Shown here in pieces: positions 18,001 to 24,000 of a DNA stretch of 64,000 nucleotides. The stretch is taken from the NCBI RefSeq assembly GCF_054482525.1, contig NZ_CM137006.1; one strand, given 5' to 3'. The position numbers are program-made. How positions within the stretch are numbered: position 1 is the stretch's first letter; every line of letters begins with the position of its first letter.

Positions 18001-21000
18001 CAGACCAGCAGACACGCCACCACCGGCACAGCAAAATCCATCAGGCTTGCCACATCCCATGCACGTGTATCAAAACCGCCCCACCACGGCATATTCATTC
18101 GCTTGCCATGCCCGAACATTTCGATCCAGCGATATTCTGCCTGGGTGTGTTCACGCGCAATGAAGAACGTACAACCGGCTATCGCCCCGTAAGCCCAGTT
18201 CCCGGTAAAAAGACCAATCAGTAGCTGCGCAGCCACAGCACAAAGCGCATGAAGGAAAGGTGTTATATCCATTTTCATCCTACCCAATAAAACGGGGCGC
18301 TCGGCCCCTTAATATTATTTAGACGCAAGCGCCGCATCAATTGCAGATAATCTTTGTCTTAATTCTGCGTTTTCTTCTTCCAGTGCTGTTATTCTGTCGT
18401 CTGACTCTCTGGCTACCTGAACAAGCAAGCCAGTAACACCAGAATAATCAACTGTGTAATAACGTTCACCTTCTTCACCTTCCGATCCGCTTGCACCGTC
18501 CTGATATTTCATTGCGGAACCTACAACTTCTGGGATTGCTTCCAGAGCTTCCTGTGCAATGACTCCAGCATAGGGCATACCGTTTTCTTTAAGCGTGTAT
18601 GTATAGCCGTTCATTTTACGGATGCGGTCGGTTGCATTATCGATCACCTGAATGTTGTCTTTCAGATCCCGGTCGGAATGCTGGTTAAATGCGGTGGCAT
18701 GACATGCACCATTAACGCTTAACATATAGGTGTTATCGGTATTTTTCTGCGCATAGAACATATAAGCGCCACCATCAGCACCAACTTCATATACAACCGG
18801 ACGGGTAGAGTTACCCCACAAACTAGTAGTAGCGCCAGAATGAGCGGTTCCCTGTGTGTTGATTGTCATGGTTGACCCATGATTGGCATATTTGATTTGT
18901 AATGTGTCTGTGCAGTCAAACTTAATAAGCGCGTTACTTCCCCGCACACCATACGACATGAGACAGTTCCCCATCTTAAGGTAACCATCACTGCCTGGAA
19001 AAATTAATGTTCCGCCGTAAAGATCGCTAAAATCCCAAAAGATACCTTTTGTTCCATTGTGTGTGACAATCCTTGTCATTGTATCTTTTGTACCGTCAAT
19101 ATTTTTTCTGGTGTACATCTCACTATAAGCGTTTTCGGTTTCTCCTGTCTTATTTGACAAGTGAATCTTACCGCTAAATATAGTTCCAGTGGTCGGCAAT
19201 GTCTTTTGATTATAGATTACATTGCAATAACTATTCCATGTTGTTTTATTGTCTACATATGATTTTGTTGCGTAGCTTCCTTGATCGTTTTTTAATTTGC
19301 TAACGTCGGATTTTAGCGTTTTGATATCATCAGGAATTACTGTCGATGTAGCCATTTTTCTTCCTCACATCCAGCCACGAAGTTGATGCTCAACAGCAAC
19401 CGCGTATTCATCGAATAATGACGATATTTGCGAATCATTAATGATGCGCACGTTTACAAAATATCCGTCCTCCTTAACACATACCGGCTCGCCATCTTCA
19501 GTAAGTTCTCCGGTTTCTTTGTACACATTACCTATCACGTCAATAAGAATATCATCCTGCATCGACTCGTCATCATAATAGCCAATACTCTCCATAAAGG
19601 CCGAAAAGTCGGCCCTGTCGGCAAATTTGAGTGTTAAATCTTTCATTAGATTGACTCCCCCATCTGAGCATCAGTCAATGCCTTGTGCCATATTCTGAAA
19701 TTCCTGACATGACCAAATAAATGACGCAACCCGGCTGTAGTCTGGCCTCCAATACGGATAATTGCGGTGTTCTGAATATAGGACCATGTGGCTTTCTTTT
19801 CGCTGGATATACGCCCGTTACTTACTGAGCACGTAGACTGATCTGACTTTACACGCATCCCCATAACCATTTTTTCAAGCGATGCGTTTTCGTTTACCCG
19901 TCTGTTAGCCAAACCTATATCGCAATAAGGAAATCCGTCGTAATCTGTTGAACGACCGAAGCCAAGAATAATAGCCGCTCCGGTTTGATGACCGCCGGTA
20001 TCAAAAACACGCGGTGCTGCATTTGGCGTTTTATACCAGTTCTTATGTACCTCACAAAGAACTGTAAAAGGAAGATTATAAAGGTTATTCTTGATTGAGA
20101 CTGTCACCATATCGCTTGCGCGAGTGCTTGCAATTATATCAGTTACAATAAATGACGAAGCACTTGATCCACCTTCCACTTGTGGAGTTGCGATATCCAG
20201 ATAGTCTCCAGATGCTGTGCCTGAACCTTTTACTGGAGCATATTGAACCATCGCACCAATCATGCTCTCTGTATCTAGTGCATTAATTGTAGCCTGATAG
20301 AAAATCTAACCAGTAGCCTCATCTTTTACAGCCTTTGCAATAATACGATTTGCTGCACCACCAGTCTTATCAATTACAAGTGTTGATAAATTGAGGTAAG
20401 CATCTCCCAAAAAAGTGTAAGTAGAACCATCATGATGTTCAAATCTTAAACGACACCTTATATTTTCAACATCACTTCTGACACGGCATGAAATGGTCAC
20501 ATATTTTTCATCACCTGTGACATCAAATCCTTTACTGCCAGAAACCGTTACGATATTAATCGCACTTGTCTGATCAATAAGAGTATCTTTTACAGTAAAT
20601 CTCCCATAAGTAAAATTAAAAGAATCCGTGGATATTTCTGTGAGTTCCAGATTGCCTGACTTATTCCATTTAGATGGATTTGTTGAATTAAGCAGAAGAT
20701 TAGTTCTTTGCCCCTCAATAAGCAGGCCATCACGTTCAAATCGCGGCTCGTCAATGGCAGCCTCTGTCAGTACACCAGATTTATTAATATAGGTTGCTTT
20801 CGATGCGCGTTTAAACTTAACAACCTTGTCACCAGGCATCGTTATTTCATCATCACCAATAACAATCTTTTTATATGATGGCGAAAAGCCCGTAATCATA
20901 TCCAGTGAATCGTTAAACGGTATCCACACATCGGGAAGCGGCTGCAAAACTTGTTTATACGGCTCCGCAGCCTGGCTTGCATACTCTCTGGCTGCGTCTT

Positions 21001-24000
21001 CACTTGCTTTTGCAGCCGTCTGGCTTGCAGCGGATGCTTTCGCCGAGTTAGCCGCCGCAGTCTCGCTCGCCTTTGCGTTGGTTTCACTGGTTTTTGCAGC
21101 TTTTTGACTGTTGGCTGATGCAGTGGCAGAAGAAGCCGCCGCACTTGCAGAACCAGCTGCGGCACTCTCGCTTTGGGCTGCAGCATCCTGACTGTTTTTC
21201 GCCGCAGTTTCACTGGCTTTGGCATTCGTTTCGCTGGTCTTCGCTGCCGTCTGGCTGGACTTTGCGTTAGTTTCACTCGTCTTCGCAGCTTTCTGGCTGT
21301 TAGCCGCAGCAGTTGCTGATCCAGCTGCTGAAGTCGCAGAACCGGCTGCCGCGCTCTCGTTTTGGGCTGCTGCAACCTGGCTGTTTTTTGCCGCAGTTTC
21401 ACTGGCTTTGGCATTCGTTTCGCTGGTCTTCGCTGCCGTCTGGCTGGACTTTGCGTTGGTTTCGCTCGTCTTTGCGGCTGTCTCGCTATTTTTCGCGTTG
21501 GTTTCTGATTTTTTGGCTGCTGCCGCGGAGTTTGCTGATGCAGTCTGTGAGGTCGCTGCCGCCTGTGCACTATTAGCTGCATTCGTTTCTGAGGTTTTCG
21601 CCGCGTTCTTCGATGATGCCGCTGCAGTTTCGGATTTCTTTGCCGCCGCTGCGCTCTGAGAGGCGGCTTCAGCGTTGCGTGCCGCTTCTTCCACCATTTC
21701 CTCAAAACGACGCAATGCCTCCGGCATGACATCATCTTCCGTCATGGCACCGAGAAAATCATTCAGCGTACCTGGTCTGGAACCTTCATAGACGGTAATG
21801 GTCCCGGCATGCGAAGGCGGAAAACCTTCAACCAGCAGGGTGACGCTGTACTGGCCATACTCAACATCCATGCTGTAACGCCCGGCTTCATCAGGATTTT
21901 CAGAGGCCACCGTGTTCACCAGTACCGTGGTGCTGTTACGCTTTGCCTTCAGTTGAATAGTGCAGTTCTGTATTGGTTTTCCCGCACCATCTTTCAGCAC
22001 ACCTGAGATTTTTACTGCTGCCATATCCACTCCACAAAAAAGCCCGCCTGAACCGGCGGGCTGTCATAACACTGTGTTACCTGGCTAATCAGAATTTATA
22101 ACCGACACCCACGATGAAACCGTCAGTGCGCCAGTCACCACTGCCGGAACCTTCATAAGCAAGGTCAATGGCCACGGATTCGGTCGGGTTAAACTGCACG
22201 CCAGCCCCCCACGCCAGAGACGTGTTGCTGTGGCGACCGTCATCACTTCCGGTCAGCACATCGTGCGTTTTCCCCTTGTTGTCAGTTACGCGGAGATAAT
22301 CCCCGGAGAAGGTCGACACACGGCTGTAAGCCATACCCGCCATCGCATAAGCACTGAACCATTCATTCACGCGTACAGATGGCCCCGCCATCATGCTGAA
22401 CCAGCGGTTACACACTGAATCTTCATGCCAGCGGGTATCGCTGTAATGCGTTTTTTGCTCATCTTTGGCATTGGCATAACTGAATGACGTCACCAGCCCC
22501 AGCGTGTCCGTAAATTCATAACGGTATTTCACGTTAATGCCCTTCAGGTCATCACTGCCTGGCATATCAGTATGGGTCTGAAGATACCCGGCGCTTAGTG
22601 TGGACTGATGCTCTGCTGCGCTCGCTGGCGTACCAGCGGCAACCAGCCAGACTACTGCGGACAGAATAACAGCACATAATTTACGCATAATTACCTCTCG
22701 CTTTTCTGCAATAAAAAAGGCGTCATTTCTGACGCCCGTATTGAGGTTATAAAATTCAGCTGATACTGATGCCTGCGGTGGCTTTCTTCATCACCACAAC
22801 CAGCAAATCGCTGATACTTGCTGTGGGATACCAGTCATTTACCAGCCATGCTGACACCGAAAACTCCAGCGTCATGTGACCGTGACCGGCAGGCATATCA
22901 ATAACGCCACTGTAAATCAGCGTATTATCCAGCGCGGTACGGTTATAAATTTCAGCACCGTTTTTCCGCACTATCAGACGGCATGAGGAGTAAATATCAG
23001 TATGCTCTCTCTCATGTTTAGCGCCGCTGAATGCCACCGCCGGAATAACAATCTGCCGGTCAAACGGCTGATCGTCATAAACCCTGACGGTAATGGTCCC
23101 TGATGGCCACCGTTCCGGTGCACGGGAGTCCCGGGGGAAAGCTTTGCCCACTGTTTTAACGAGATCGCCTTCAATCTGGTTCGCGGACAGTTTTCCCAGA
23201 ACCCGGCAGTTCTCGTTAATCGTGACGTTGTTGAGCGTCCCGGAGTTCGCATTCACGTTACCGCTGATATCGGCATTTTTCGCCGTCAGCCGCCCGTCCG
23301 GTGTCAGGGAAAATGCCGGAGGATTACCGCCGCTGGTAATGGTGGGAGCCGTCAGATATTTCAGGAACACTTCGTTCATGAATATCTGATCGCCCTGACC
23401 AACAAACATCGGCTTTGTGTTGCCATTCGCAGGATTAACCATCGCAATCCTGTCCGCCGCCAGCAGCACCTGACTCTGCATGCCGTCAGGGGTGTTCTCA
23501 ATACCGGCACCAATACCCGCGATATAAAGGCGTCCGTCCTGCATCTGCTGCAGCTTCACAGCCCACATGCTGTTCAGGTTATTATTTGTATCAACCTGAA
23601 CCTTCTGTATCTGCTGAATTGCCGCACTCTGGTCTTCCAGTTTCTTATTGACGGTCTGCGTGATTTCATTGCTGACATCCGTAATGGACGTCCTGATTTC
23701 AGCCAGGTCAGGCGCAAGCTGACCGTTATCAATCTGCGTCCACAGCTCCTGAGCCAGATGGCTTTTCCCTATCTCGCCTTTGAAAAAATCCAGATAGCCG
23801 GATGCATCATCACTCGGCTGGCCAACAGCCTCCACAAATGCCGATTTGCCAACGGTGTTCACACTGCGGATGTAAAAATAATAATCATGGCCCGGTTTGA
23901 TATTGATACTGGCGGCTATCCAGTACAGCGCCGTGCCAAGATAGCGGGCTGTGGTTTCAACCTGCCTGATATCGGTAATCCGCGTTTCCGAGAACCAGAA

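Follow-up and report, generated by a model that had tools for sequence, protein, structure and literature searches.

In this study, we analysed a 64,000-nt stretch of DNA (hereafter the window; NCBI RefSeq assembly GCF_054482525.1, contig NZ_CM137006.1) and examined a tandem repeat inside stf, the side-fibre gene of a lambdoid prophage. Our results indicate that this repeat arose by in-frame tandem duplication of nine heptads (63 residues) in the alpha-helical, trimeric coiled-coil shaft of a lambda-type Stf, a reading to which we assign a probability of about 85%. It is an ordinary and minor fibre-length polymorphism, a known kind of feature in which nothing departs from known lambda-type Stf or phage coiled-coil fibres. 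The coordinates of all features are shown in Table 1.

The repeat was delimited by two programs. Tandem Repeats Finder reported an array at 21053-21487 with a period of 189 nt (2.3 copies, 84% matches, no indels, score 611), and a separate repeat finder returned two 189-nt copies with 83% identity. The unit is therefore 189 bp, or 63 codons, long, and not 186-187 bp (62 aa) as given in a preliminary description of this DNA. Aligned with each other, the two units differ at 28 of 189 positions (85% identity), and all of these differences lie within nt 63-183 of the unit; the first 62 nt of both units, together with the 6 nt upstream, show no differences. When offsets from 180 to 195 were scanned, an exact 68-nt tract was found at an offset of 189 only, with runs of at most 7 nt at the others. 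The preliminary description had given the correct length for this tract, whereas its coordinates (21205-21272 and 21392-21459, offset 187) were 2-4 nt out of register; in that alignment only 11 of 68 positions match, and it was rejected. Shorter arrays with periods of 21 and 42 nt were found by Tandem Repeats Finder nested inside the 189-nt array, and the families of 31-60-nt copies returned by the other program lie at spacings that are multiples of 21. At the protein level, the duplicated heptads read KSSQTAA KTSETNA KASETAA KNSQxAA AQxESAA AGSAxxA AxSATAx ANSQKAA KTSETNA.

The observed tract was compared with three kinds of shuffled shaft. The longest exact repeat averaged 11 nt when codons were shuffled freely, 13.5 nt (maximum 19) when codons were held in their heptad position and 25 nt (maximum 45) when whole heptads were shuffled. 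The 68-nt exact repeat is thus far above all shuffled controls.

Both 189-nt units lie inside a run of 35 uninterrupted heptads, whose register they leave unbroken. As previously described, this shaft is rich in Ala (36%), Ser (18%) and Thr (11%), and the repeats sit in the part of stf that encodes it. Of the 35 heptads, 31 have Ser in the third position and 32 have Ala in the seventh; the sixth residue is Ala or Asn, the first Lys or Ala, and the fifth mostly Thr. Along the chain, the Ser of position 3 and the Ala of position 7 succeed each other at intervals of four and three residues, like the core positions of a coiled coil. An AlphaFold2 monomer model, built on a 14-sequence alignment (mean predicted local distance difference test score, pLDDT, of 63), has a six-stranded N-terminal domain and places helices at residues 103-251 and 261-357. 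Residues 3-329 of the window Stf are colinear with residues 2-342 of lambda orf-401 at 59% identity, with a single gap of two heptads (14 residues), and on the basis of this alignment the window shaft is homologous to the proximal coiled coil of lambda Stf. The Stf of Ur-lambda begins with a collar (residues 1-91) and a linker (92-101), which lead into the proximal coiled coil, a trimer over residues 102-393; a hinge and a distal part complete the protein (PMC12617516). The window shaft beyond residue 102 aligns inside the proximal coiled coil. By homology, the shaft would be a parallel trimeric coiled coil. The rise of a coiled coil is about 0.15 nm per residue; on this basis, each 63-residue unit would account for roughly 9 nm of the shaft, which would measure about 36-38 nm in all. 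A PDB sequence search with Stf showed that the solved part comprises the N-terminal 94 residues only (9e7m/9mgh), with no solved structure for the shaft. Weak PDB matches to depolymerases, PPR proteins and the C-terminal domain of RNA polymerase II were set aside as low-complexity noise.

The features expected of a lambda-type Stf are present in the gene: a collar domain, a position after J and lom, and a heptad-based shaft predicted to be helical. The collar matches the PDB entries 9e7m/9mgh ('Tail fiber protein') over residues 2-94 with an E-value of 4e-49, and aa 5-134 score 224.7 bits with PF08400 ('prophage tail fibre N-terminal'; cutoff 26.6, E 4.3e-67). Cryo-electron microscopy and cryo-electron tomography of Ur-lambda resolved Stf residues 1-94 and a collar of 12 copies that gives rise to four trimeric fibres (PMC12617516); by analogy, the window Stf would form four homotrimeric fibres per virion. 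The stf gene of Escherichia coli CH4811 (2379 nt) aligns with the window without gaps and with 30 nt differences (99% identity). It is annotated as one 792-codon gene where the window shows two open reading frames (ORFs) of 574 and 205 aa, and its product matches the profile of phrog_1419, a tail protein family, over the full length, with residues 2-792 aligned to positions 1-793 (1483 bits). A GTA_spike_fiber domain (NF048003) is located at aa 435-636 of the CH4811 stf product (59.3 bits against a cutoff of 36).

This comparison also revises the extent of the gene. The preliminary description had placed stf at 20306-22030, which covers only the N-terminal 572 of 792 codons. Its upper limit is a GTG codon at 22030, where a mechanical ORF call begins 6 nt too early; homologues and the solved lambda StfN begin with MAVKISG, which sets the true start at the ATG at 22024. 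At the other end, the frame is interrupted: codon 573 of 792 is an amber codon that results from a G to A change at nt 1718 of the coding sequence and leaves an ORF of 572 aa, whereas relatives have a Trp codon. The last 219 codons form an untranslated tail, part of which is read as the 205-aa ORF at 19646-20263. The 60 closest complete E. coli genomes all lack the amber codon, and their alignments end without exception at query nt 1723, just before the mutated base. Judged from its sequence, the stf copy in the window is probably a pseudogene. The stf gene of laboratory lambda PaPa is also inactivated, but by a frameshift. Among closely related IMG/VR stf alleles, about 6 of 80 are truncated (392, 393, 503, 673, 674 and 729 aa; L031, L055, L033, L022, L070 and others), and inactivation of the side-fibre gene appears to be common in prophages.

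To date the duplication, units 1 and 2 were compared across the alleles of CH4811, S88, E. coli B and the phages 2G7b and ev207, which are 91-99% identical overall. Throughout this set, the copies cluster by unit and not by allele, and the same 27-28 differences separate unit 1 from unit 2. Since these differences recur in diverged alleles, the duplication is older than the divergence of the alleles; on this comparison it is old and fixed in this allele family. A recent duplication is thereby ruled out, and the earlier view of recent, perfect repeats has to be abandoned. Only in the window and CH4811 does the perfect tract reach 68 nt. In other alleles, a few allele-specific substitutions shorten it to 47 nt (ev207), 29 nt (S88, AF40), 26 nt (2G7b) or 18 nt (B). 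Ongoing gene conversion that would keep the 68-nt tract perfect was also considered and found unneeded, as S88, B and 2G7b, with one to three differences in the tract, are most simply explained by a few mutations on one branch. The only real mosaic replacements were found in RIVM_C037791 and L078, in which the unit-1 slot carries a 3' part of unit-2 type and a different 5' part.

The number of units is stable. All of the 60 best-matching complete E. coli genomes (96.5-99.4% identity; among them S88, APEC O1 and SMS-3-5, which were finished early) have two units and exactly the shaft length of the window, and two units were also found in 56 of 58 IMG/VR loci that share the shaft junction. For length comparison, a heptad counter that halted at any Ile, Met or His undercounted several alleles and was therefore replaced by the distance between the motifs MVEE and PY(K/R)(Q/Y)VLQP. 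One-unit alleles (26 heptads) are present in phage IdasGreatGrand and in the complete chromosomes of E. coli AVS0655 and CB209, with about five one-unit records among 1,040 that match a one-unit probe; in eight protein clusters, the main run has 24 heptads instead of 33. All single-unit alleles carry a 3' part of unit-2 type (6-10 differences from unit 2, 28-30 from unit 1). A three-unit allele (44 heptads, 855 aa), arranged 1-1'-2, occurs in the IMG/VR contig L046. Its extra unit is of unit-1 type and differs from unit 1 at nine positions; it is therefore neither a fresh duplication nor a trivial duplication in assembly. Changes by heptads were also observed: L089 is shorter by seven heptads, lost between two KTSETNA-KASETAA copies, AF40 is shorter by one, and in the more distant relative Lambda_4C10 the same two end domains enclose a run of only about 20 heptads. 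Thus, the suggestion that the repeats could vary fibre length between isolates is borne out as far as whole-unit and heptad alleles exist, whereas copy number is stable and the variants are rare. The array does not behave as a hypervariable locus with a variable number of tandem repeats, since copy number rarely differs and the units are 85% identical rather than near-identical.

On the basis of these allele structures, the following course of events can be proposed. Both units open with a common tract of about 62-68 nt, in which rare misaligned homologous recombination would take place; the tract is long enough for such recombination, and the preliminary description had called the repeats recombination-prone. 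A misaligned crossover would leave a one-unit allele composed of the common 5' tract and the 3' part of unit 2, and the reciprocal product would be a three-unit allele with units 1-1-2. Recombination between the 21- or 42-nt repeats would remove one heptad or groups of heptads. All of these products would keep the heptad register, so that the fibre could still assemble. The compositions of the one- and three-unit alleles are those expected for reciprocal products of unequal crossing-over in the 5' tract, from which we infer the crossover mechanism. The duplication would have no dedicated function beyond setting the length of the shaft.

Several points weigh against this interpretation. The one-unit state could equally be ancestral and precede the duplication. 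Only one draft-genome contig in IMG/VR supplies the three-unit allele, and the 25 best matches of a three-unit probe to complete E. coli genomes include no allele with three units. In the AlphaFold2 model, a monomer with the mean pLDDT given above, the chain folds back at residues 252-260. A fold-back of the same kind, described as an artefact of prediction, was reported for full-length lambda Stf by the authors of the Ur-lambda study (PMC12617516). Any effect of shaft length on adsorption or host range is hypothetical. Given the amber codon, the fibre of the window prophage may not be made at all.

It might be argued that the length alleles are not neutral. The one-, two- and three-unit alleles (26, 35 and 44 heptads, or about 27, 36 and 46 nm) would then adjust how far the fibre extends to the depth of the host's O-antigen or capsule layer, and the 5' tract would be kept identical by selection or gene conversion to allow steps of 9 nm; we consider this improbable. 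An even smaller chance should be given to a contingency locus, in which the near-identical tract would be kept for frequent changes of copy number that switch fibre length within a phage population. The minimum homology for RecA or Red recombination is roughly 25-30 nt, which the 68-nt perfect tract exceeds, and alleles with one, two and three units do exist. However, the 28 differences in 189 nt are stable across diverged alleles, two units are present in 60 of 60 complete genomes and 56 of 58 IMG/VR loci, one-unit records amount to about 5 in 1,040 and three units are lacking among the 25 best complete-genome matches, while the extra unit of L046 has already diverged at nine positions and so does not record a fresh event. 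The possibility that the repeat was collapsed or expanded in assembly can practically be dismissed. It might draw on the many database homologues that are labelled 'partial' at contig ends, but these partial proteins contain the whole shaft and break further downstream. Moreover, the units are only 83-85% identical, the 68-nt perfect tract is below typical read length, and the same two-unit length is shared by 60 independent complete genomes, which rules out the artefact that the preliminary description had named as a possible refutation. It should be noted that most database homologues are partial and end at a contig edge 120-340 residues past the shaft; short-read assemblies, as these contigs indicate, pass the 189-bp repeat and are interrupted at the point from which co-resident prophages differ in their distal modules.

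A further possibility concerns the exchange of fibre modules: the repetitive shaft DNA would mainly serve as a homology arm for swapping C-terminal receptor-binding modules between different prophages and even with virulent phages, and the duplication would persist by lengthening this arm. Sequences matching the N-terminal domain and shaft of stf are widespread, with at least one match in 4,801 of 5,426 E. coli genomes; the median number of matching places per genome is 2 and the maximum is 14. In PhiR47_1, PhiR55_1 and PhiR11_1 and in a class of 785-aa proteins, the shaft is 95-97% identical as far as query nt 897, a position inside unit 2, from which another distal module follows (no literature was found on the PhiR phages, PV3405xx). 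Under laboratory conditions, recombination of lambda with stf sequences of Rac and Qin has been shown (PMC3945230), and engineered Stf chimeras that retain the lambda N-terminal part are functional (PMC11338833). A T5-like Salmonella phage, described below, also shares these heptads, and its distal module is 97% identical. On the other hand, most homology breakpoints (query nt 1296-1374) are located outside the repeats, some 90 codons after the shaft has ended, with different distal modules beyond them; homology to the T5-like phage starts at the shaft end and not within the shaft, and the data show no sign of selection for the duplication itself. We regard this role as possible although doubtful. 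It is compatible with an old in-frame duplication in a coiled-coil shaft and does not exclude it.

The phage just mentioned, vB_Si_CECAV_FGS017 (Tequintavirus), is virulent and encodes at L093 2459-5073 an LtfA-like protein of phrog_1419 with a T5-type N-terminus. Its distal module is 96.7% identical in nucleotide sequence to the window stf (query nt 1085-1723), with protein similarity up to the C-terminus. Compared with the window (19365-20946), homology begins exactly at the end of the shaft and is followed by the same small ORF of phrog_1361, and its own shaft is built from the same KTSETNA heptads. On these grounds, the FGS017 and window fibres look like products of a recent module exchange between temperate and virulent phages.

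The shaft also contains long ORFs in other frames, which the preliminary description had considered spurious. We examined the fraction of synonymous changes among the codons that differ between seven colinear alleles. In the stf frame this fraction amounts to 65%, compared with 14% and 7% for the two remaining sense frames. On the opposite strand, the frame whose wobble positions coincide with those of stf reaches 59%, and the others reach 6-10%. The value of 59% is explained by the coincidence of wobble positions with stf, and this antisense frame has three stops within the shaft. The +1 frame is free of stops over 244 codons. This is due to the biased codon composition of the shaft, in which T occupies only 1% of second and 9% of first codon positions. 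Thus, both the 279-aa and the 146-aa ORF are present and, given the low synonymous fraction of the former and the shared wobble positions of the latter, spurious as described. The ORF on the plus strand (21219-21659) has weak similarity to lambda orf206b and to phrog_560, a family of unknown function. Lambda orf206b (NC_001416 20147-20767, minus strand; L091 1248-1868) is an annotated antisense ORF that lies wholly inside the Ala/Ser-rich part of the orf-401 shaft, as the window ORF does in stf, with no difference of substance; both are best read as by-products of biased codon composition, and phrog_560 may be a family of spurious antisense translations. That one of the two ORFs is a real overlapping gene seems highly improbable. 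The 244 stop-free codons, the weak phrog_560 match with the likeness to an annotated lambda ORF, and the synonymous fraction of 59% could all be cited for it, but the stop-free frames are explained by codon composition, the +1 frame combines 14% synonymous changes with no family match, and the antisense excess is what wobble sharing predicts in a frame with three stops.

The surroundings of stf are those of a lambdoid prophage, in which J, lom and stf follow one another in the same order as in lambda (Table 1). The conserved 93-aa ORF always follows stf, and this order recurs in CH4811, 2G7b, S88 and one T5-like phage, and the 346-aa protein encoded next to it, which has an S74 chaperone domain, is judged from its sequence a likely distal fibre partner of Stf. 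The prophage end next to the fibre genes carries a gene for an omptin-family outer-membrane protease (15351-16304, plus strand) and one for an AraC-type regulator (16554-17303, minus strand). At the corresponding place, the related prophage of CH4811 carries cdtA/cdtB, for cytolethal distending toxin IV (L003 8562-9723).

Table 1. Features of stf, its repeat and the surrounding prophage genes in the window
Feature	Position	Strand	Basis or remark
346-aa fibre protein, C-terminal S74 intramolecular chaperone domain	18315-19355	-	PF13884, E 6e-14; phrog_4563 end to end
93-aa ORF, phrog_1361 (function unknown)	19365-19646	-	Directly after stf
Complete stf reading frame, 792 codons, one in-frame stop	19646-22024	-	Colinear with CH4811 stf
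Amber codon TAG, codon 573 (W573*; TGG Trp in relatives)	20306-20308	-	G to A at window position 20307
Spurious 279-aa ORF	20896-21735	-	+1 frame of stf; 14% synonymous; no PHROG match
Shaft, aa 108-352, 35 uninterrupted heptads of pattern x-x-S-x-x-A-A	20969-21703	-	Heptad layout, AlphaFold2, lambda alignment
Repeat unit 2, 189 nt	21074-21262	-	28 differences from unit 1
Exact 68-nt tract, copy 2	21201-21268	-	Exact-run offset scan
Spurious 146-aa antisense ORF, counterpart of lambda orf206b	21219-21659	+	Shares wobble positions with stf
Repeat unit 1, 189 nt, nine heptads	21263-21451	-	KSSQTAA...KTSETNA
Exact 68-nt tract, copy 1	21390-21457	-	6 nt upstream of unit 1 and first 62 nt of unit 1
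N-terminal collar domain (aa 1-95), fibre anchor on the tail tip	21740-22024	-	PDB 9e7m/9mgh, AlphaFold2
lom	22089-22688	-	Between J and stf
J	22756-26235	-	Seven J-specific Pfam domains
Integrase	60319-61461		Adjoins icd
icd	61575-62825		Next to integrase

The repeat is of little importance beyond annotation. It does illustrate the shaft architecture of a very common E. coli prophage fibre, in which heptads, 14-residue pairs and a duplicated 63-residue block form successive levels. The tolerance of the shaft for in-register gain and loss of heptads is useful for the design of lambda-type Stf chimeras and the choice of fusion points, and the natural series of one, two and three units is a ready test set, if shaft length affects host range. 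For annotation, the locus holds several traps, namely false ORFs in stop-free frames (as in lambda orf206b), a start called 6 nt early and a fibre gene split by a nonsense codon.

Compared with known systems, the window Stf is closest in plan to that of Ur-lambda (PMC12617516), with which it has in common the collar domain, the place after J and lom, and heptads rich in Ala, Ser and Thr, including KTSETNA. The shaft connects the collar on the tail tip to the C-terminal distal module, and it comprises 35 heptads with a clean nine-heptad tandem duplication in the window, whereas lambda has about 41 heptads. The distal module is GTA_spike_fiber-like (NF048003) in the window; in contrast, lambda has a gp37-like distal coiled coil and an OmpC-binding tip. 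Downstream, the 93-aa ORF and the S74-chaperone fibre protein stand where lambda has Tfa. The T5-like phage DT57C has branched lateral tail fibres (PMC4728585, PMC10713586), and its LtfA forms a three-helix coiled coil that projects from the attachment domain (PMC10713586). T5-like LtfA differs from the window Stf in its T5 collar-type N-terminus instead of PF08400 and in the order and number of heptads, whereas the gene order is the same: an Stf/LtfA-like gene, a small ORF and a second fibre gene. This order, in common with LtfA/LtfB loci, suggests by analogy that the side fibre of the window prophage could be a two-protein, possibly branched, structure.

Two more distant parallels can be drawn. 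Letarov et al. in 2005, cited in PMC10713586, reportedly described the fibritin gpwac of T4-type phages as a segmented coiled coil that becomes longer or shorter as heptad segments are gained or lost. The streptococcal M protein is a size-variable coiled-coil surface protein whose repeat blocks vary frequently. Like the predicted window shaft, fibritin and M protein would be fibrous parallel coiled coils encoded by tandem DNA repeats, in which in-register changes of length spare the fold. They are unrelated to it in sequence, and the two-unit state of the window shaft is nearly fixed, in contrast with the frequent variation of M protein.

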